Source: Candidatus Eiseniibacteriota bacterium
GTDB lineage: Bacteria; Orphanbacterota; Orphanbacteria; Orphanbacterales; Orphanbacteraceae
Reading direction: 5' to 3'
Assembly (NCBI GenBank): GCA_016930695.1
Contig: JAFGGD010000030.1
Span: forward strand, 56,321-120,320
Length of the DNA: 64,000 nt
Below the pieces are notes generated by a model. That model was not told the DNA's origin, ran no database searches, and saw only the letters and a program-made list of their open reading frames with translations. The position numbers and the translations under genes are program-made. Positions 6,333 to 61,468 of the stretch are shown piece after piece (position 1 is the first letter of the stretch; each line of letters starts with the position of its first letter).

Positions 6333-7807
6333 GGACGGTGAACGCTCTCCTCTTTCTCTCGGCGCTCCTGGCCGCCGCTCTCGTCTCTTTCGGCGGCTGC
6401 GGCGACAACGCCTTCGATCCGAAGGAGAACCGCGCCCCCGAAACGGGACTCGCCCTGACCGGCGACTCCCTCTCCACCACCATCTATCGCGTGAATCTGA
6501 AGTGGTGGGGGAGCGATCTGGACGGCGAGGTGCACGGCTACGAATACCGTTGGATTCCTCTGCAGGGTCTCACCGAAACCTACGAACTGGACACCGCCTG
6601 GACCTATACCGCCTTCGTGAAAAAGAATTTCGTCCTTCCCGTGCCGGACGCGAACGCGCGCTTCCGCTTCGAGGTCCGCGCCATGGACGACGAGGGGAAG
6701 AGGGATCCGACGCCGGCGACGCAGGAGTATCCTTTCTATAACAATCGTCCTTCGGTGTCGATCCGGTACAAGTCGCTCCTCCCCGATTCCGCCTGGCCGG
6801 TGCTCACCTTCGGCTGGGACTCCGCGGACCCGGACGGCGACTCCACCATCGCCAAACATCTGATCTGGGTGGGGGGACGCGAGGAATCGCCGATGGAGGT
6901 GGACGCCGAGCTGGACACGATTCTCCTTCTGCCGGCGCAATTGGACACTTCCGGCTGGGTGACCGTGTTCCTGCAGACCGTAGACGAGGCCCACTCCGCC
7001 AGCGATCCGGACAGTTTTGACGTGAAACTCTATCCGATTCATGGGGAGATCCTCCTGGTCGACGACTACTCGCTCAACTCGGCGGGATTCGTGGACGCCG
7101 ACTCTTGGTACAAGGACTTCCTGATCGGCCGCGTACAGGAAGACGGCTTCACCCGGATCGACCTCGCCAAAACGCCTTTCAACACGGACGTTCGTTTCGG
7201 CGGCTTCCTGACCGCCTTCAACCACGTGATCTGGTACAGCGGCCACCGCGCGCGATCGGTCTTCAGCGACGAGCAGCGTTTCACCCAGATGGGACGCGCC
7301 GAGAAGGGACTGGGCACATTCCTCGAGCGGGGGGGAGGCCTCTTCCTCTCCTCGCTGAACGCGATCGGCACCTACAGCGGGTTCACGCCCAATTTCTATA
7401 AGACCTACGCCGGTTTCGACACCGTCTTCATCGACACCACGCCGCGCACCCAGACCTTCTCCAACTTCGCGTTCCGCGAGGGGATCTACGCCTACCAGGT
7501 CCCCCTGGAGCCTTTCGAGGGGACCGGTCTTCCCCAGCTGCGCGCCTTCACCGGGCTTCGCTATCACGGGCTCGACTCTCCGGTCGATACCACTGCAACC
7601 TTTGCCGCGGAAAGGCTTTACAAGATTCCGAACGGCAATCTGCAGGGGCAGGCCGCCGACTTCACCGTCGTACTCCGCCGGGATTTACCCGCTCCGGGGG
7701 GACGCCTGGTGCTCTCCACCATTCCCTTCGCCTTCTATTATGGGGAAGGGAACAACGACGAGGTGTTCGGGGCTTTCCTCGACTGGCTGGGAGCGCCGGC
7801 CCGCTAA
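6329..7807 (+). CDS. Lipoprotein of unknown function (last gene of operon)
   Basis: ATGA overlap with the upstream stop. Lipobox LVSFGG-C (MRTVNALLFLSALLAAALVSFGGCGDN). The six-frame ORF extends upstream to 5255, but there is no signal peptide there and that extension lies inside the preceding gene. Confidence 0.5.
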   Translation: MRTVNALLFLSALLAAALVSFGGCGDNAFDPKENRAPETGLALTGDSLSTTIYRVNLKWWGSDLDGEVHGYEYRWIPLQGLTETYELDTAWTYTAFVKKNFVLPVPDANARFRFEVRAMDDEGKRDPTPATQEYPFYNNRPSVSIRYKSLLPDSAWPVLTFGWDSADPDGDSTIAKHLIWVGGREESPMEVDAELDTILLLPAQLDTSGWVTVFLQTVDEAHSASDPDSFDVKLYPIHGEILLVDDYSLNSAGFVDADSWYKDFLIGRVQEDGFTRIDLAKTPFNTDVRFGGFLTAFNHVIWYSGHRARSVFSDEQRFTQMGRAEKGLGTFLERGGGLFLSSLNAIGTYSGFTPNFYKTYAGFDTVFIDTTPRTQTFSNFAFREGIYAYQVPLEPFEGTGLPQLRAFTGLRYHGLDSPVDTTATFAAERLYKIPNGNLQGQAADFTVVLRRDLPAPGGRLVLSTIPFAFYYGEGNNDEVFGAFLDWLGAPAR

Positions 7808-7842
7808 GTCCCGGCTGTGCCTCGACATCCTTAACCTTCATC

Positions 7843-7871
7843 TTGACTTGACGTTGCGTTTCTGGTAACAT
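7843..7871 (+). promoter_or_regulatory. Sigma-70-like promoter candidate (TTGACT-N17-TAACAT) upstream of 8014 gene
   Basis: Hexamers read directly, with 17-nt spacer; about 140 nt upstream of the start codon, followed by a weak hairpin plus T6 at 7892-7910. Confidence 0.3.
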
Positions 7872-8013
7872 TGTTTCGCCGTCTATATACAGCGGCGATG
7901 CGCTTTTTTCCCCCGGCGGCGCCGGCGGGAAGGGCGGCCGAAAAAACGTTCCTGATGCCGAATTTCGGAAACCGAATCCGCGAGTCCCACCGGGCCGCAA
8001 GGAGGAATGTCCC

Positions 8014-15863: not shown

Positions 15864-17249
15864 ATGTTGGCGGAGAAAGAGACTAGGCGGAAGGCGGCGG
15901 TTCTCGTCATCGACGACGAAGCGGAGATCCGCCAGTCCCTCCAGAAACTGCTCACCAGGGAAGGGTACGAAGTCCACGCCGCCGCCGACGGCAAGGAGGC
16001 GATGAGCCTCGTCCGGACCCACCGTTTCCCCGTCGCCCTCTCCGACCTCCGCCTACCCGACGTGGACGGCCTCGACCTCCTGAAGATGCTCAAGATCGCT
16101 TCTCCCGAGACGGAAGTGGTGATGATCACCGGGTACGGCACCGTGGACGACGCGGTCCGGGCGATGAAGGACGGCGCCTACGACTTCATCCAGAAGCCGG
16201 TCAAGCGCCATCTGATCCTGAAGTCGGTGGAGAAAGCGCTGGAGAGAAGAGCGCTCGCCTCCGAGAACCGGGAGCTGCGCGCCCGGATTCGTTCCATGGA
16301 GAGAACGACCAGCCCGGTCAGCGCATCCCCGTCGATGCAGAAGGTCATCGAGATGGCGGAGCAGGTGGCGCCGAGCGCCGCGTCGGTGCTGATCCAGGGG
16401 GAGAGCGGGACCGGCAAGGAGGTGATCGCCGACATCATCCACGCCGCGAGCCTCCGCAAGGACGCCCCCTTCATCAAGGTGAACTGCGCCGCCATCCCGG
16501 AGACGCTCCTGGAGGCGGAACTCTTCGGCCATGAAAAGGGCTCCTTTACGGGCGCGGTCTCACGGCGAATCGGGCGCTTCGAACTGGCCGACGGGGGCAC
16601 CCTCTTCCTCGACGAAATCGGCGAGATGTCGCAAGCGACGCAGGTGAAGCTGCTCCGCGTGCTCCAGGAGGGTGAGTTCGAGAGGGTGGGGGGGGCGGAG
16701 ACTCTACGCGTGGACGTGCGGATTCTGGCCGCCACCAACGCCGACCTGGAGGAAGCGATCCGGTCGAGGCGCTTCCGCGAGGATCTCTACTACCGTCTGA
16801 ACGTGGTCACCATCCACATCCCTCCCCTCCGGGAACGGCCGGAGGACATCCCCCTTTTGGCGGAGCGCTTCATGCGCGCCTTCAACGAGAGGAACAACAA
16901 GGCGATCGAGGGGCTCTCGCCGGAGGTGATCGATCGCTTTCTCCAGTACGGCTGGCCCGGCAACGTACGTGAGCTGGAGAACGTGATCGAGAGGGCGGTC
17001 GTCCTCGGAAAAGGGAGGTTCGTCGAGCCCGAGGATCTTCCCCCGTCGCTCCATCGCCGGGAAGGGGTGGAGAGCGCCGTCCGCGTCCCCTTCGGCATGA
17101 CCATGGCGCAGGCGGAGCACCGGATCATCACCGAGACCCTTCGCCGCACCCGCGGAAACAAGGAGATGGCGGCCCGCCTCCTCGGCATCGCCGCACGAAC
17201 CATCTATCGAAAATTGGAGAACCCCCCGCCCCCGTTTCAGGCGGAATGA
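15864..17249 (+). CDS. Sigma-54-dependent response regulator (NtrC family: REC + AAA+ sigma-54 activator + HTH)
   Basis: Receiver domain [11 protein letters not shown]...[14 protein letters not shown]. Walker [15 protein letters not shown]-like box GSFTGA and [10 protein letters not shown]-like [11 protein letters not shown]-terminal Fis-type [25 protein letters not shown]. Confidence 0.9.
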
Positions 17250-17434
17250 TGATCCCCCTCCGGGGATTGCGCGAATCGGACCGGTCTGTTACGCTCCTTT
17301 CGTCTTGTCAAAATGTCCCGTCCGAGGTTTCGCGGCGGGTTCATCTTGTCAGTCCCCCCGGAAGCCCCGAAGGGAGGGCTGCCCTTAAAGCAATACAAAT
17401 CAACCGGTTGCATTCTTTCTTTCCTTCCGGTTGG

Positions 17435-17450
17435 TGGCATGAGCCTTGCG
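17435..17450 (+). promoter_or_regulatory. Sigma-54 promoter (TGGCAT-N5-TTGCG) upstream of kor operon
   Basis: -24 GG and -12 GC at canonical spacing, read directly. 89 nt upstream of the korD ATG and 186 nt downstream of the sigma-54 activator gene. Confidence 0.6.
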
Positions 17451-25608: not shown

Positions 25609-25693
25609 TGCCGGAGGTCGGAATCGAACCGACACGAGGCTAAGCCTCGGGGGATTTTGAGTCCCCTGCGTCTACCAATTTCACCACTCCGGC
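25609..25693 (-). tRNA. tRNA-Leu (anticodon CAA)
   Basis: Reverse complement reads GCCGGAGTGGTGAAATTGGTAGACGCAGGGGACTCAAAATCCCCCGAGGCTTAGCCTCGTGTCGGTTCGATTCCGACCTCCGGCA. It has a 7-bp acceptor stem, anticodon loop CUCAAAA (CAA), a long variable arm and a GTTCGATTC T-loop. It is close to the E. coli leuX sequence as recalled. CCA is not encoded. Confidence 0.85.
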
Positions 25694-25836: not shown

Positions 25837-25909
25837 GGGGCTGTAGCTCAGCTGGGAGAGCACTTGACTGGCAGTCAAGAGGCCACGGGTTCGAGCCCCG
25901 TCAGCTCCA
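25837..25909 (+). tRNA. tRNA-Ala (anticodon GGC)
   Basis: GGGGCTGTAGCTCAGCTGGGAGAGCACTTGACTGGCAGTCAAGAGGCCACGGGTTCGAGCCCCGTCAGCTCCA. G3:U70 Ala identity pair, anticodon loop CUGGCAG, GTTCGAGCC T-arm. CCA is not encoded. Confidence 0.9.
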
Positions 25910-25930: not shown

Positions 25931-26551
25931 CTATTCCCAGTCGAACTTCCATGTGTGGTGCTGCACCATTTCGCCATCGTGATACGCTTCGAATACGACC
26001 GAGGAGATGGATCGATCGAGCCGGAACGGGAAAGTAACGTCCGCTATGCTCCCCCAGATCGAAGTGCCGCGAATCGACGCTTCCTGCAGCTCGGCGCCCC
26101 GCACCTCCTCGATGGCGGCCGGATCGAAAACCCCTTCGTCCCCGCCGCGGAGGCGGAAATTCCACCGTTCCAAATCGACCATGTCGGCACGATCCCCCCA
26201 GATGACGACGCGGAAGCTGATCCCCCGGTCGATGAACCGTTCCCGCATCGACCGGAGGGCCTGATCGGCGCCCGACTTGTCGCCGACCCGCTTGACCAGG
26301 TACGCGTAATCATAGAGAAGAACGGACGTGGTTCCGGAGGTCTCCATCAGCGTTCGTCCCGTGTAGGGACGGACGAAATACGCCTCCAGTTCCTCGAGGG
26401 AGAGGTTCCGATAACTCATGTGAATCTGTTCGTCCACGGTAGGGTGGACGGGTTCCATAAAGAAGGCGGGGGGGGAGCATGAGAGGAGCGGGAGGAAAAG
26501 CGCGAAGGCGATCGGGGCGAGGGCGAGGCAGGTGACTTTTCTCTTATGCAT
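25931..26551 (-). CDS. Lipoprotein of unknown function
   Basis: Lipobox LPLLS-C in MHKRKVTCLALAPIAFALFLPLLSCSPP. The start was chosen at the Met preceding the signal peptide; the ORF track allows 26581. Confidence 0.5.
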   Translation of the reverse strand: MHKRKVTCLALAPIAFALFLPLLSCSPPAFFMEPVHPTVDEQIHMSYRNLSLEELEAYFVRPYTGRTLMETSGTTSVLLYDYAYLVKRVGDKSGADQALRSMRERFIDRGISFRVVIWGDRADMVDLERWNFRLRGGDEGVFDPAAIEEVRGAELQEASIRGTSIWGSIADVTFPFRLDRSISSVVFEAYHDGEMVQHHTWKFDWE

Positions 26552-26986
26552 CACGAATCCCTCCGGGCAACACCGTACCAACGGCGCCGATGTGAGTCAA
26601 GATCGACGCAATCCGCATCGCCCCCTCGCATTCTGGATTCCGCCCTTCTTGACACAACGCCTCTATTGCATTAAAATAAATATCGACAACGGCTTAAGGT
26701 TGGTGCGCGCCTTTTCCCCATCATGCGGGAAAAGACCCTCGAGCCGGAATCGATTGTGCCGCAACCGAGTACCGGGACATCCCCCCCGCACTCCCGGAGA
26801 GGTGTGAGGCAAAACGCCTTACATCGCTCGATCGACCGTGAGAGGGTTCTTCTTCCTGAAAGGGAGAGAGGGCGAGGAGCGGGTGTTGCCCATGAACCGT
26901 GATTTCATTCTAGCAAACGGTTTGTACCGCGGACCTCAGAAATCACCCGAGGTCCCTCTGTGCTTTCTTTGCACACCCCCTATCCC

Positions 26987-27002
26987 TGGCACCCCCCTTG
27001 CA
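26987..27002 (+). promoter_or_regulatory. Sigma-54 promoter (TGGCAC-N5-TTGCA), near-consensus
   Basis: Exact -24 TGGCAC and -12 TTGCA with a 5-nt spacer, read directly, 215 nt upstream of the 27218 start codon. Confidence 0.6.
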
Positions 27003-27217
27003 ATTTCTCACCGGCAAATACGAAGCGGTAGATGGGGATTCGTTCCCTGCGCTACCCGTGGTTTGCCGGGTCGTGGGCTGATCTCATTCGACTTGGATTC
27101 GAGTTTCACGGTTACCTGTGCACACGGTAGGGGCGGGGAACCCCCTTCTTTCCGCATCCCCCATTTCCTTTCGGCGCCCGCGCCGCCCTCGGCGATCCCC
27201 TTTGCCGCGGCGGAGGG

Positions 27218-30200
27218 TTGACGATGCGCTTCCTTCGAACTATTCCGGCGCTTTCGATCCTGGCCGGCGCGCTTCTCTGCGCGGCCCTCCCCGCGGCGGC
27301 GGTCGAAGGGCTCCTTCTGATCGCGCCGGGCGGGGCGGGCTGGACCGATTCGCGGGACGCCATCGAGGGAGCGGGCGGCCGTCTCCTCTTCGCCTTCCCA
27401 CCGGGGGGTGCGGTGATTGAGGGACCGGATTCCTTCTGGGAGAGGATCGCCGGGCTACGCGACGATTGGACCGTCCGTTTCGACGCGATCCCCGAGTCGG
27501 AGTCGGCCGGGTTCGAGCGGACCGCGCGTTTCGCGGCGCATGCTTGGAACAGGAGGCTCTCGCCGCCGGCGCGGGGGGCGCATCGCGCCGGAGAGCCGGG
27601 AGAGAGCCGCGCCGGTCCGGCCCCCGCCGGCGACGGGGGCATGATGAAGGCGCCTCCGGGCGGCAATTTCTTCGACACGAGCGAGTTCTTCCTCGGCACG
27701 GTCGCGATCGCCATCCTCCTTCCGGAGAGCGACGGTTCGATCGATCCCTCCACCGAAAACTGGTCCGCCGCGCGGATCGACTCCGTGATCGCCGAGGTGC
27801 AGGAGGGAGCGGCCTGGTGGATCGGGAAGGCGCCGGGCGGGCGGCTTTCCTTCGTGTATGAAATCCCCGATCCGATCCCCTGTCCCTATGAGCCGATCTC
27901 ACGCAACGCGTTCGTGGCGAAACAGGAGACCCTCTGGGTCCGCACCGTTTTCGATTCCCTGGGCTACGCCTCCGGCGACACATGGTTTCGCGGCCGTTCC
28001 TACCTGAACGACGTGCGGGACACCCACGGCGCCGACTGGGCGGTGGCGGTTTTCGTCGCCGACTCCGAGAACGATCCGGACGGGAGGTTCGCCAACAGCC
28101 TGATCGGGTTCTCCTACTACGGCGGGCCCTACCACTGCATGACCTACGACTGCGGTTCCTACGGGATCGGGGGGATGCGCGCCGTCGAGGCGCACGAGCT
28201 GGCGCACAATTTCTACGCCCTCGACGAATACTACTCGGCCCACAAGGGGTGCGCCCTGAAGGCGGGATACCTTTACGCGGAGAACCAGAACAGCGAATAC
28301 GGTTCCTGCATTCTCGACGAATCGTGCATCATGCGGGACGACCTGCAGGCGGCCTACGACTCGAGCGCCGCCTGCGTCTACACCCTCGCGCAGGTCGGGA
28401 TGGCCGACGACGACGAAGACGGGATCGCCGATATTCTGGACACCCATCCGAGCACCCTCTTCGACGCCTTCCCCGACTCGACCGACGATGTGACTCCGAC
28501 CGTCGGCGGCGCCGCCGAGGTGAATCCCCGCACCAACCGGAACGCGCTCGGCGAAGGGAACGACATCACGCTGAACACGATTTCCGCCGTGCAGGTCCGC
28601 ATAGACGGGGGGGAATGGCTCGTCGCGCAGCCGGCGGACGGCGTATTCGATTCCACCTGGGAAGCCTTCACCTTCACCGCTCCGGCGGTGACCGAGACCG
28701 CCCACGTCTTCGAGGCCCGGGCGATCAACTCCGAGGGGAACGCGGACACGGTCTTCGCCGCGGAGACGCTCCTCGTCTACGACGGCACGCCGCCGTCACC
28801 GGTGGCATCGCCCGTCGCCGCGGCCCTCGACTCATCGGTCACGCTGGCCTGGGTCGCGCCCGAGGACGGCGACTACGAAGCGGTGATGATCCGCTTCGGC
28901 ACCGCCGCCTACCCGGCGGACACGCTCGACGGTTTCCTCCTGGAACGGCGCGCCGGCGCCCCCGGCGAACCGGACACGACGATCCACGCCGGCCTCTTCC
29001 CGGACACCACCTACTATTACGCCTTCTTCTCTCTCGACGAGGCGTCCAACCCCTCGGCGCGCGCGGAGGCCACCGCCACGCCTCTCTACCCGCTCCCGCC
29101 GGCGGCCCTCCTCGCGCCCCCGGCCGGATCGCTTTATGTCGAAATCGAAACGGACTTTCTCTGGAGCGCGATCCCCCTCGATGATCCGCTCGACACATTG
29201 ATCGCCTACGCCGTGCAGATCGCCCGGGACAGCCTGTTCACCGACGTGCTGGTGGACAGCGAAGCGACCGCCGGATCGCCTGCGGACACCTTCTGGACCT
29301 GCGCCGGCCTCCCCGAGGGGACCATCCTCTGGTGGCGCGCGCGCGGCCTGGACGTCCTCTCCGGCACATGGGGCCTTTGGGGCGTGGGATCGCGATTCGC
29401 CACCCGGCTCCCCCTCGCGGGGATCGCCTTCCTCGACTCCACGCTCTCCGGCTACACCAACTTCGCCGACGGCGATTCGCTTCTCCCCAACGAGGACGCG
29501 CGCGTCGAGGTCCGTATCGAACCGGCGGACACTCTCGACATCGGCGGCTTCGCCGGCTGGGTCCGCTGGGAGGGAACCACGACCGACTCCGCGCCCCTCG
29601 CCCTGGACAGGAACGAGGGGGGATACGGCTACTGGCGGGGCGAGATCCCCTATGGAACCGCCTTCCACCGCGGGGACACGGTCTCCTTTTACGTCTCCGC
29701 CGGAGCCCCCTACCAAGCGGGTCTGCGGGACAAGAACGCCGGGGACGACTACGCCTTCACGGCGGGGAGGAGCAAGCTCGCCGCGCTCCACGTGCCGGAG
29801 CAGACGGACCCCTATGTGCCGATGCGGTATCCCTTCATCCCGAGCGACGCGGATCCGTCGATCACTCTGACGATCCGCGCCGAGCCTTCCGGGAACGTCA
29901 CCGGCGGCGCGGCCGTTCTCCGTGTCGCCGGCGATCCGAACTACTCTCTCTTCCCGGTCCTTTCGGACACGCTGATCGGCGGCGTCGATTACCTCACCGT
30001 TCTCGTCGATTCCACCTTCGACGTCGACGACGTGGTGGAGTACTACCTGCGGGTCTGGGGTGACCCGTCGCTTTGGGACACCACCTTCCTCTACGGGACC
30101 AACGACACGAGCCGGACCGCCTCCGTCGAGGCGAGCGCCGCGGGCGCGCCCTTCACCTTCCTCGTGCACAGCGTGACCGGGCTTCCCGCGGCGGGAGACG

Positions 30201-30490
30201 GGCTCCTCCCGTCCCGAAACGAACTTCTTCCGAACGCGCCCAATCCGTTCAACCCGACGACCACCCTCTCCTTCGCACTCACCCGCGCCGAGCGCGTCAG
30301 CCTCGCACTCTTCGACGTGCGGGGACGGCTGGTCCGCGTGCTGATGGACGACGCCCGCCCGCCGGGCTGGCACGAAATCGCCTGGAACGGCTTGGACGGC
30401 GGCGGGAAGGAAGCGCCGAGCGGCGTCTACTTCTCCGTGCTCCGGGGGAACGGCTGGAACCAAACCCGCAAGATCGTCCTCATCCGTTAA
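27218..30490 (+). CDS. Large secreted zinc metallopeptidase-like protein (HEXXH) with T9SS C-terminal sorting domain
   Basis: Signal peptide MTMRFLRTIPALSILAGALLCAALPAAA. MRAVEAHELAHNFYALDEYY contains HEXXH with a downstream acidic residue. 1090 aa with a Gly/Asp-rich beta-rich body. C-terminus ...SGVYFSVLRGNGWNQTRKIVLIR. Confidence 0.65.
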   Translation: MTMRFLRTIPALSILAGALLCAALPAAAVEGLLLIAPGGAGWTDSRDAIEGAGGRLLFAFPPGGAVIEGPDSFWERIAGLRDDWTVRFDAIPESESAGFERTARFAAHAWNRRLSPPARGAHRAGEPGESRAGPAPAGDGGMMKAPPGGNFFDTSEFFLGTVAIAILLPESDGSIDPSTENWSAARIDSVIAEVQEGAAWWIGKAPGGRLSFVYEIPDPIPCPYEPISRNAFVAKQETLWVRTVFDSLGYASGDTWFRGRSYLNDVRDTHGADWAVAVFVADSENDPDGRFANSLIGFSYYGGPYHCMTYDCGSYGIGGMRAVEAHELAHNFYALDEYYSAHKGCALKAGYLYAENQNSEYGSCILDESCIMRDDLQAAYDSSAACVYTLAQVGMADDDEDGIADILDTHPSTLFDAFPDSTDDVTPTVGGAAEVNPRTNRNALGEGNDITLNTISAVQVRIDGGEWLVAQPADGVFDSTWEAFTFTAPAVTETAHVFEARAINSEGNADTVFAAETLLVYDGTPPSPVASPVAAALDSSVTLAWVAPEDGDYEAVMIRFGTAAYPADTLDGFLLERRAGAPGEPDTTIHAGLFPDTTYYYAFFSLDEASNPSARAEATATPLYPLPPAALLAPPAGSLYVEIETDFLWSAIPLDDPLDTLIAYAVQIARDSLFTDVLVDSEATAGSPADTFWTCAGLPEGTILWWRARGLDVLSGTWGLWGVGSRFATRLPLAGIAFLDSTLSGYTNFADGDSLLPNEDARVEVRIEPADTLDIGGFAGWVRWEGTTTDSAPLALDRNEGGYGYWRGEIPYGTAFHRGDTVSFYVSAGAPYQAGLRDKNAGDDYAFTAGRSKLAALHVPEQTDPYVPMRYPFIPSDADPSITLTIRAEPSGNVTGGAAVLRVAGDPNYSLFPVLSDTLIGGVDYLTVLVDSTFDVDDVVEYYLRVWGDPSLWDTTFLYGTNDTSRTASVEASAAGAPFTFLVHSVTGLPAAGDGLLPSRNELLPNAPNPFNPTTTLSFALTRAERVSLALFDVRGRLVRVLMDDARPPGWHEIAWNGLDGGGKEAPSGVYFSVLRGNGWNQTRKIVLIR

Positions 30491-30569
30491 AGAGACGCGC
30501 GGGGACGCGCCCCTCTTCGATTCTCCCCTCCATTCCGCGCCGGAACCGCATGAGATCAGCGCGTTTCCG

Positions 30570-30599
30570 TTGACAGCGCACGGCCCCCTCTGCTACGTT
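30570..30599 (+). promoter_or_regulatory. Sigma-70-like promoter (TTGACA-N18-TACGTT) of the BMC operon
   Basis: Consensus -35 and a 4/6 -10 with 18-nt spacer, about 70 nt upstream of the BMC-H start. RBS AAGGAGGAG ahead of the ATG. Confidence 0.45.
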
Positions 30600-30670
30600 C
30601 CACGAGATTCTCGAGGAAACACACCCCGATCCGAGCCGCCCGTCGGCCGGATCGTCGCAAGGAGGAGAGC

Positions 30671-30964
30671 ATGGGCGAAGCGTTGGGCATGATCGAGTGT
30701 CGCGGGTTCATCGGCGTGGTGGAAGCCGCGGACGCGATGGTGAAGGCGGCCAAGGTCACCCTGGTGCACTACGAACGGATCGGCGGCGGTTACGCCACGG
30801 CGATCATCCGCGGAGACGTGGCCGCCGTGCGCGCCGCGACCGAAGCGGGTTCCGCCGCGGCGAGCAAGGTGGGCGAACTGGTCTCGGTGCATGTCATTCC
30901 CCGCCCCCATTCGAACCTGGAAGAGGTGCTCCCCATCGGGAAGCGCTCCGGCGACAACGACTGA
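30671..30964 (+). CDS. Bacterial microcompartment shell protein BMC-H (PduA/EutM/CcmK family)
   Basis: [76 protein letters not shown] matches the canonical BMC-domain sequence almost residue by residue. Confidence 0.9.
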
Positions 30965-60310: not shown

Positions 60311-61362
60311 TCCGGCGCCTCCTCCTCACGGCGGTCCTCCTGCTGGCGCCCTCCTGCGCCCAGCAGGGACCGCCGCCCGGAGGCCCGGTGGACGACACCC
60401 CGCCGGAGGTGATCTTCACCATGCCGGCGGCGGACTCCACAGGCTTCCGTCCGCCCTACGTGCTCGCCGTCGCGTTCAGCGAGAAGATGGACAAGAGAAG
60501 CGTGCAGAGAAACCTCCGGATCTATCCTCGGCCTGAATGGATTCGGACCGAGTGGGAGGGGACGACGCTTTTGATTCGCACCGATCACGGAGCCGGCGAG
60601 CGACCGGACGGCGGGGAGATCGTCACGGTGACCGTCTCCGCCAAGTCGATGGACCGGCGAGACAATCTGATGGCGGCCCCCTTCTCTTTCTCCTTCACAT
60701 CCGCCGACTCCCTGCCCGCCGGTGTCGCGACGGGACGGGTGGAGGGGATACGGCGGGGGAGGGAGGTGCCCGCGGTGATTCTGCGCGCCCTCCGGCCGGC
60801 GGCGGCGGACTCTCTTCCGGCGACGGTGATCACCGAGACCGAGGCGGGGAACGACGGCACATTCCGGATCGACCACCTCCCCACCACTCCGGGGGACCGC
60901 TTTCTCCTCGCCGCGTTCATCGACGACGACGAGAATCTCGTACTGGACCGAGACCGCGAGGATTACGGGTTCAGCGACACGCTCTCCTTCCCCCCGGAGG
61001 GCGCGCGGATCGACTCGCTCGTCATCCCGTTGATCAACGCCGAAACACCCGCCAAGCTCTCCGGCCGCATCACCTTGGAACTCTCCTACGACTCGGTGAT
61101 CGTCGAGGCGATCGCCGAGGGGGATAGCGCCGGGCCGCAGTACGCCGAGCCGGACAGCACCGGAGCCTATGCGTTCGCCAGGCTCCCGGCGGGGGAGTAC
61201 CGCGTTCGTATCCTGCTCGGAACACGACAGATGGCGCTCCACGCCGAGCCGGAAAGCCCTTTGGAAACGCTTTCCGAGCGCCTCCTGCGGCTCGAACCGG
61301 GCGAGGAGAGGGTTTCCTTCCTCCTGCCTGAACGGGAGCGGGAGGCCCAAGTTACGCAATAA
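60307..61362 (+). CDS. Lipoprotein with Ig-like (SbsA-type) domain, unknown function
   Basis: ATGA overlap with the argF stop. Lipobox LLLAPS-C. DDTPPEVIFTMPAADSTG is like bacterial Ig-like domain openings. A CarboxypepD_reg-like YRVRILLG segment lies near the C-terminus. Confidence 0.5.
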   Translation: MIRRLLLTAVLLLAPSCAQQGPPPGGPVDDTPPEVIFTMPAADSTGFRPPYVLAVAFSEKMDKRSVQRNLRIYPRPEWIRTEWEGTTLLIRTDHGAGERPDGGEIVTVTVSAKSMDRRDNLMAAPFSFSFTSADSLPAGVATGRVEGIRRGREVPAVILRALRPAAADSLPATVITETEAGNDGTFRIDHLPTTPGDRFLLAAFIDDDENLVLDRDREDYGFSDTLSFPPEGARIDSLVIPLINAETPAKLSGRITLELSYDSVIVEAIAEGDSAGPQYAEPDSTGAYAFARLPAGEYRVRILLGTRQMALHAEPESPLETLSERLLRLEPGEERVSFLLPEREREAQVTQ

Positions 61363-61468
61363 AAAAGAGTTGACAGGCTCAAAACGCCCGTGATAGCGTT
61401 TCGCAGAGTCGTCTGTCTGGTATTTCGGCGTTCCCGGGGGACCGGGGACTTGGACCGGGAGGGAACCG

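Follow-up and report, generated by a model that had tools for sequence, protein, structure and literature searches.

A structured leader RNA behind a conserved sigma-54 promoter: a candidate regulatory RNA beside a microcompartment locus of Candidatus Eisenbacteria

Introduction

Small RNAs transcribed from sigma-54-dependent promoters include Qrr1-4, GlmY/GlmZ and CrcZ. The ethanolamine microcompartment of Enterococcus and Listeria has a small RNA that contains an adenosylcobalamin (AdoCbl) riboswitch (EutX/Rli55), together with the ANTAR antiterminator EutV, and Rho-dependent riboswitch leaders are represented by enterobacterial mgtA (Mg2+) and ribB (flavin mononucleotide). Candidatus Eisenbacteria is an uncultivated phylum for which, to our knowledge, no regulatory RNA has been described. 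Here we analyze a conserved RNA element of ~105 nt that lies in the leader of a gene for a secreted protein with an HExxH motif, upstream of a bacterial microcompartment locus, in a 64,000-nt stretch of DNA from this phylum (assembly GCA_016930695.1, contig JAFGGD010000030.1, positions 56,321 to 120,320 of the forward strand). This whole stretch is referred to as the window, and all coordinates are given in its numbering. It is well supported that the element is a new structured RNA coupled to a conserved sigma-54 promoter, and it is a candidate for a new regulatory RNA i.e. a riboswitch-like leader or a small RNA (sRNA).

The element is like transcription-attenuating riboswitches in being a conserved multi-helix 5'-leader RNA closed by a helix, P1, and in having covarying stems around invariant loop and junction nucleotides; in one group of relatives (clade B) the 3' strand of P1 has a second possible partner in the 5' arm of a hairpin that lies further downstream and carries a U/C-rich tail. 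Unlike known riboswitches, it matches no Rfam model and is sigma-54-driven, the clade to which the window belongs has neither a recognisable terminator nor a platform that would sequester the ribosome-binding site (RBS), and the energetics strongly favor the terminated state. Like Qrr1-4, GlmY/GlmZ and CrcZ, it is a short structured RNA directly 3' of a consensus -24/-12 promoter, present as a single copy beside possible target genes and followed in some lineages by a terminator-like hairpin. Unlike these sRNAs, to which it has no similarity of sequence or structure (Rfam negative), it stands at a fixed distance from a start codon, leaves no room for a separate promoter in at least one locus, and shows no consistent complementarity to a target. 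As in the mgtA and ribB leaders, the window's clade has a C-rich, G-poor tract after the element instead of an intrinsic terminator; this likeness is one of composition alone, and the tract may be the mere complement of the G-rich P1 strand. With the EutX/Rli55 system it would share a structured regulatory RNA in a microcompartment locus, a two-component-type input and control of terminator read-through, whereas the RNA itself, the phylum and the promoter type (sigma-54) differ, there is no ANTAR protein and no AdoCbl aptamer, and the microcompartment is of a class II aldolase/aldehyde dehydrogenase type, PVM-like according to PMC8217296, rather than an ethanolamine one.

Results

Orthologous loci

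The 1088-amino-acid (aa) protein encoded downstream of the element is identical to NCBI entry JW958_05860, and its full-length orthologues are 39-62% identical to it. Contigs of orthologues were retrieved by exact-protein look-up via the protein database. Species genomes and Joint Genome Institute (JGI) metagenomes were scanned for an invariant 18-mer of the element, GGGTCGTGGGCTGATCTC, or for a derivative of it with 20 specified bases; these string scans gave 8 and 10 real loci, plus 9 and 1 chance matches in unrelated coding DNA. A protein-pattern scan of the species genomes with the 1088-aa protein gave no match. The string scans and protein look-ups combined yielded 22 distinct versions of the element. 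The order around it is conserved: tRNA-Leu/tRNA-Ala, usually a lipoprotein gene, a non-coding gap of ~655-1000 bp, a gene for a ~1090-aa protein, and the microcompartment locus. When the gaps are aligned most of the sequence drifts and one block, in the leader, is almost invariant.

A conserved and covarying RNA in the leader

The 18-mer and most loop positions are invariant in all 22 distinct sequences, the flanking proteins being 39-62% identical. RNAalifold, applied to 20 versions, gave a single long irregular hairpin of four stacked helices, P1-P4 (Table 1), and the minimum-energy fold of the window sequence alone contains the same helices. In a model-based alignment of the 22 distinct sequences, 96.9% of the cells at the 28 pairs form standard pairs; pairing falls to 37-51% when the partners are slid by 1-3 columns. 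Compensatory changes on both sides occur at seven pairs, in P1 and P2 and, in one case, P3 (e.g. UA/CG/AU/GC at one P1 pair and AU/GC at one P2 pair), and the covariation score was reached by none of 500 column shuffles. The covariance model built from the element (R1) scores 122 bits on the plus strand vs 14 bits on the minus strand, and the invariant G-U pairs also favor the plus strand. Each locus has a single match to this model, and there is no other in the window. Two loci retrieved by protein identity only, L044 and L045, have the element where it was expected (109 and 90 bits), and are an independent check of the model.

A preliminary description of this DNA had suggested a regulatory leader or an sRNA here, to be checked by predicting the structure of the leader and by looking for conservation in related genomes. 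The leader does hold a covarying RNA structure, whose very high conservation that description had not noted, and the element and the sigma-54 promoter are kept in 22 related loci. The RNA appears to be new: none of the 4227 models of Rfam 15 overlaps it at E <= 10 in 26000-27800, no match to it reaches the gathering score in a search of the whole window, five other versions of the element have no Rfam match at E <= 1, and literature searches by sequence string and by topic returned no prior description of it. Two additional structures were rejected. A pseudoknot that would join the P2/P3 junction to the terminal loop comprises only 3 bp and fails in clade C, and a hairpin within the loop itself (ACUUG-GAUK-CGAGU) is interrupted in L036, L022 and L035, while the P4 of RNAalifold is kept in all.

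Conservation of this kind could also be explained if the region contained DNA-level sites only (for an activator, integration host factor (IHF) or repressors), with the leader conserved because of a DNA-bound protein or a small open reading frame (ORF). IHF-like cores at fixed positions and an inverted repeat kept by position at 26931-26955 (see below) are in keeping with this explanation, as is one frame across the element that is open in 18 of 20 sequences. That frame has stops in the other two sequences and runs through the promoter; it is the only mostly open one, there is no conserved start codon, and nucleotides such as GCACACGG are kept in different frames either side of indels, with conservation at all codon positions. 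The element 27040-27152 is not coding. The compensatory changes in P1 and P2 argue against DNA-level sites, as do the invariant G-U pairs, which would be A-C on the other strand; the set of palindromes in the gap is at chance level and TGTGC-N7-GCACA is not conserved. An explanation by DNA sites or a small ORF is therefore very improbable, and for the 27040-27152 element it is largely refuted; the sites upstream of the element may be DNA-level ones.

Table 1. Coordinates of features in the gap 26552-27223 and at its edges
Feature	Position	Strand	Basis
Start region of lipoprotein gene	26559-26600	-	blocks invariant in 5-locus alignment A1
RBS of lipoprotein gene (plus-strand CCCTCC)	26559-26564	-	invariant in A1
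Promoter-like TTGACT-N17-TACGGT (plus-strand ACCGTA and AGTCAA)	26572-26577 and 26595-26600	-	putative promoter
Sigma-70-type promoter-like TTGACA-N17-TAAAAT	26649-26677	+	promoter scan; 11 of 12 consensus positions
IHF-like core YAA-N4-TTAG, GACAACGGCTTAAG	26685-26698		directly 3' of TAAAAT; conserved island in alignments
Hairpin CTTTTCCC-N8-GGGAAAAG	26711-26734	+	8-bp stem
CAAACgGTTTG over IHF-like CAA-N4-TT core	26914-26924		core at -73/-72 from TGGCAC
Inverted repeat GGACCTC-N11-GAGGTCC	26931-26955		inverted-repeat scan
TGTGC-N7-GCACA	26959-26975		window-specific
Sigma-54 promoter TGGCAC-N5-TTGCA, TGGCACCCCCCTTGCA	26987-27002	+	exact consensus match
Optional 5' hairpin P0, GGGGA-UUCG-UUCCC	27034-27047	+	overlaps P1 5' strand
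Conserved structured RNA element, ~105 nt	27040-27152	+	alignments A1, A2, A4; RNAalifold; covariance model
P1	27041-27050 with 27133-27142	+	RNAalifold, 20 versions
P2	27054-27060 with 27123-27128	+	RNAalifold, 20 versions
P3	27067-27070 with 27115-27118	+	RNAalifold, 20 versions
P4	27072-27079 with 27102-27110	+	RNAalifold, 20 versions
Invariant 18-mer	27068-27085	+	alignment
Terminal loop, 22 nt	27080-27101	+	RNAalifold consensus
C-rich, G-poor tract directly 3' of P1	27140-27172	+	composition
RBS GGAGGG and ATG of 1088-aa secreted HExxH/FlgD_ig gene	27212-27226	+	sequence

The sigma-54 promoter

Across the 64 kb the consensus has no exact match other than the sigma-54 promoter, and 100 shuffles of the window yield none. 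The pattern TGGCAY-N5-[TA]TGC occurs in 22/22 orthologous loci, 68-85 nt upstream of the 18-mer (68-81 nt in 19 listed loci and 85 nt in L042), and the RNA would therefore start ~27 nt before P1. In the window the predicted transcription start is ~27013, which gives a leader of 211 nt up to the ATG. The preliminary description had placed the promoter at exactly 26987-27002, and it stands at the same place in all 22 loci; the 215-nt leader that it proposed, with a start codon at 27218, is also there, the ATG at 27224 being the likelier start and the length being 211 nt. The TTG at 27218 is in frame with this ATG.

An NtrC/AtoC-type activator is encoded at 15864-17249. There is no shared site of at least 10 nt between the region upstream of the sigma-54 promoter and the one beside the activator gene, and no conserved enhancer-like repeat was identified upstream of the promoter. 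A second sigma-54 promoter, TGGCATGAGCCTTGC (17435-17449), lies after the activator gene and before genes for pyruvate:ferredoxin oxidoreductase; upstream of it are a perfect IHF consensus, AATCAACCGGTTG (17398-17410), and two copies of TCTTGTCA (17303 and 17344).

Hairpins and a C-rich tract between the element and the start codon

In the 13 loci measured, P1 ends 67-107 nt before the start codon, and 79-85 nt before it in nine of them; most members of the window's clade keep this spacing of 79-85 nt. In clade B (L009, L010, L023 and L044) this interval contains a hairpin of 13-14 bp with a U/C-rich tail. The 5' arm, TCCCCGC or TCCTCGC, is the complement of the P1 3' strand GCGGGGA, a sequence that recurs in the 3' arm, while the rest of the hairpin differs between loci. 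As judged from the sequence, this arrangement has the logic of a terminator/antiterminator switch. In L044 the hairpin and the ATG are ~27 nt apart, so that there is no room for a separate promoter and the gene would be expressed only by read-through; the hairpin must then be conditional if the gene is ever expressed.

At the 5' side the optional hairpin P0 would compete with P1 because it overlaps the P1 5' strand. P0-like hairpins are found in many loci (e.g. GGGAGC/GCUCCC and GGAAC/GUUCC), and in only 7 of 20 loci does P0 exceed composition-matched shuffles (0.08 or below). On the 3' side, the 40 nt that follow P1 in the window (27140-27179) have a C content of 0.53 and a G content of 0.10, and the corresponding 40 nt are G-poor (G <= 0.20) in 6 of the window's 11 closest relatives. 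The C-rich tract might load Rho or offer the P1 3' strand another partner, and the window's clade may be compatible with Rho-dependent attenuation. Sequestration of the RBS in dependence on P1 was also considered and rejected, there being no systematic difference between folds in which P1 was enforced and folds in which it was blocked.

The main rival to a leader that acts in cis is a free-standing sRNA acting in trans. Such an RNA would be made from the sigma-54 promoter, would end at the U/C-tailed hairpin (clade B) or near the pyrimidine tract 3' of P1, and would regulate mRNAs, of the microcompartment or others, through base pairing or through titration of a protein; that it stands ahead of the peptidase gene would be owed to shared regulation or to its derivation from the 5' untranslated region. 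The conserved promoter of its own in all loci favors this rival, sigma-54-dependent sRNAs such as Qrr, GlmY and CrcZ being well known, and so does the clade B hairpin, which lies directly 3' of the element in all four loci and makes the terminated state by far the most stable prediction. The window's clade, however, has no terminator-like site, the tight distance of 79-85 nt to the start codon is not required of a free-standing gene, and the next gene in L044 lacks room for its own promoter. The arms of the clade B terminator copy the P1 strands in sequence, a typical feature of attenuators.

The downstream gene and the microcompartment locus

The element is always followed by the ~1090-aa secreted HExxH gene and a class-II-aldolase microcompartment locus, except in the L035/L042 lineage. 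The ~1090-aa protein has a signal peptide and a FlgD_ig/type IX secretion system (T9SS)-like C-terminal domain. Residues H324-E325-x-x-H328 and D334 (HExxH-x5-D spacing) are invariant in 18 homologues, and the 1088-aa protein of the window has no match to any peptidase family of Pfam or NCBIfam. Proteins of ~620 aa from several phyla, some of them with dockerin or T9SS tails, share its N-terminal half. The microcompartment locus encodes BMC-H, EutN, an aldehyde dehydrogenase, a tandem-BMC protein, two more EutN proteins and a class II aldolase; loci with this aldolase signature are of the PVM or PVM-like type in the catalogue of PMC8217296.

L035 (reverse strand) and L042 lack the ~1090-aa gene and keep the element and a sigma-54-like promoter, TGGCAC-N5-ATGCA; ~60 nt after the element come the microcompartment promoter and then two BMC-H genes. 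This lineage is a further point for a free-standing sRNA, since the element is retained there ahead of a microcompartment gene with a promoter of its own. In the window, too, BMC-H (30671) has its own sigma-70-type promoter-like element, TTGACA-N15-TGCTACGTT, at 30570-30599. It is found at the same position in 11 other loci i.e. in 12/12 loci examined, including L035, so the upstream sigma-54 promoter need not be the only one that serves the microcompartment genes. The final base of the 1088-aa gene's stop codon (TAA, 30488-30490) falls within a GC-rich hairpin, AAGAGACGCGCGGGGACGCGCCCCTCTT (30490-30517), which continues downstream and is a possible terminator or processing site between this gene and the microcompartment promoter.

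Pairing between the terminal loop (27080-27101) and the start region of BMC-H (30636-30685) gave duplexes in the lowest 5-11% of shuffles in 6/12 loci, as a trans-acting sRNA might, and was unremarkable in the other 6/12. The complementarity is largely that of a pyrimidine-rich loop to a Shine-Dalgarno sequence, and with its absence from half of the loci it counts against an sRNA as well as for one; as a possible sign of trans action it is a weak lead. The loop of clade C contains UCUCCUU, which resembles an anti-Shine-Dalgarno sequence. Taking the points on both sides together, we consider a free-standing sRNA unlikely, albeit the strongest of the rivals.

Upstream sites and the setting of the gap

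Further upstream, the sigma-70-type promoter-like TTGACA-N17-TAAAAT, absent from the preliminary description, is kept in 21 of 22 loci (19/20, plus L044 and L045), its distance to the sigma-54 -24 element being almost constant (-319 to -349). It is followed by YAA-N4-TTAG, by a positionally conserved hairpin and in many loci by a GTCTCCCG island; the related pattern [CA]AA-N4-TT clusters at -281 to -302 in 8 loci. Orthologues keep the position of the hairpin at 26711-26734 with different stems (CCGCCCG/CGGGCGG, CCCCGC/GCGGGG), and RNAalifold retains 3 consensus pairs. The spacer of ~300 nt between TTGACA-N17-TAAAAT and the sigma-54 promoter is kept in length and not in sequence. As one structured RNA it was rejected, with fold z-scores that are mixed (mean ~-0.9) and only two small hairpins in RNAalifold, and no conserved ORF is evident in it, as judged by eye without a formal ORF test.

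Nearer to the promoter, [CA]AA-N4-TT stands at exactly -72 from TGGCAC in 9/20 loci, and at -63, -67 or -84 in three more. The earlier idea of an IHF site has partial support from this predicted IHF-like core, the full consensus WATCAANNNNTTR being matched in part only at this core. At 26931-26955 most orthologues have a loose inverted repeat, yTCAnG...yGAGG, as judged by eye. As a candidate enhancer site GGACCTC-N11-GAGGTCC fares less well: the repeat is kept by position only and lies between the IHF-like site and the promoter, an unusual position for an enhancer. TGTGC-N7-GCACA, another of the elements first singled out, is not conserved in A1 or in a 19-locus alignment, its 5-bp stem is at chance level, and it is probably a chance match. 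More generally, the gap contains 12 inverted repeats with stems of at least 5 bp vs 10.9 expected from dinucleotide shuffles, and 3 with stems of at least 7 bp vs 0.85 expected (P ~0.09), so that the palindromes proposed as regulator sites are as a set not above chance, and most are not conserved in sequence. TGTGCACACGG, now placed at 27117-27127, is not a palindromic DNA site but comprises the 3' strands of the RNA helices P3 and P2. All of the elements in the preliminary description are present, at positions 3-9 nt from those it gave, with the sigma-54 promoter exact.

The gap itself, 26552-27223, is non-coding and lies between a divergent lipoprotein gene (25931-26551, minus strand; lipobox LLSC) and the 1088-aa gene (27224-30490), whose likely start is the ATG at 27224 with the RBS GGAGGG at 27212-27217. 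Its GC content, described by eye as lower, is 58.6% as computed, vs 66.3% for the whole window. Crude gene calling leaves two larger gaps, 6333-8013 and 60311-61468; because both hold long ORFs, the gap is probably the longest truly non-coding stretch of the window, as had been claimed. The locus is flanked by tRNA-Leu(CAA) (25609-25693, minus strand) and tRNA-Ala(GGC) (25837-25909, plus strand). A back-to-back tRNA pair with matching layout and Rfam scores, isotypes not determined, adjoins the locus in L037 and L039, and in L045 the 3' end of a tRNA lies upstream of it; L037 and L045 belong to a clade without the lipoprotein gene.

Discussion

The best explanation of these results is that the gap is a compound control region, the core of which is the sigma-54 promoter plus the ~211-nt leader with its four-helix RNA. 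We give an even chance to the element being a riboswitch-like, cis-regulatory attenuator leader for the HExxH gene and, via read-through, for the microcompartment genes. In such a scheme the sigma-54 promoter would be switched on by an activator ATPase, and the nascent leader would fold into either a closed form, with P1 formed, or an open form. The latter would hold the P1 5' strand in P0, with the G-rich P1 3' strand, GCGGGGA, paired to a downstream C-rich strand. In clade B this C-rich strand is the 5' arm of the U/C-tailed hairpin, so closure of P1 would permit termination and its opening would prevent it; in the window's clade, which lacks an intrinsic terminator, the C-rich, G-poor tract at the same position could load Rho. 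The balance between the two forms would be set by a small molecule or a protein bound to the invariant internal loops.

Several observations weigh against an attenuator leader or are left unexplained by it. The start at ~27013 is derived from the promoter consensus, and the conserved TTGACA-N17-TAAAAT further upstream is not accounted for by a leader model. P3 is nearly invariant, with one covarying pair, and P4 is invariant and therefore neither supported nor contradicted by covariation. P0 and the complementarity of the downstream strand exceed composition-matched shuffles in some loci only (medians 0.34 and 0.23). By nearest-neighbor energies the state with P1 and the terminator lies 10-22 kcal/mol below the antiterminator state, so that a switch would need kinetic control or an effector. 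No terminator-like site was called in the window's clade (26300-27500), and the predicted accessibility of the RBS is independent of the state of P1. The L035/L042 lineage keeps the element without the ~1090-aa gene, which a free-standing RNA fits at least equally, and the shell gene BMC-H has its own conserved sigma-70-type promoter.

The same architecture could respond to an RNA-binding regulatory protein i.e. an antiterminator or a translational repressor, in place of a small molecule. The invariant 22-nt loop, the GAUUUGCU junction and the P3/P4 helices would suit sequence-specific recognition, and the default predicted state is termination, as in protein-mediated antitermination; microcompartment loci of Firmicutes are indeed under the ANTAR antiterminator EutV. 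However, the conserved neighborhood encodes a lipoprotein, an FG-GAP protein and tRNAs and no RNA-binding regulator, and one long irregular hairpin is unlike the dual hexaloop hairpins of ANTAR targets. We regard a protein effector as improbable.

Returning to the attenuator leader, a more specific version of it makes the element the aptamer of a riboswitch class not known before and confined to Candidatus Eisenbacteria, which would sense a metabolite of the adjacent pathway and gate the sigma-54 operon. Candidate metabolites would be a deoxy-sugar phosphate, lactaldehyde, 1,2-propanediol or a product of the secreted peptidase. This proposal is tentative, and we hold it to be possible but doubtful.

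The element is in any case a well-defined and testable candidate, with 22 distinct examples, a helix model and a fixed promoter and gene context, and the covariance model R1 and alignment A4 are directly usable to annotate these genomes, whichever interpretation holds. Should it prove to be an sRNA, sigma-54-dependent riboregulation would reach a new phylum. Should it bind a ligand, that ligand would name the signal controlling a widespread, uncharacterised microcompartment locus and a secreted metalloprotein, and the element would add an orphan class to the list of riboswitches. Were it a new aptamer, it would be the first of the riboswitches to serve specifically a bacterial microcompartment locus of the aldolase type, with AND-logic between an enhancer-dependent promoter and an RNA sensor.

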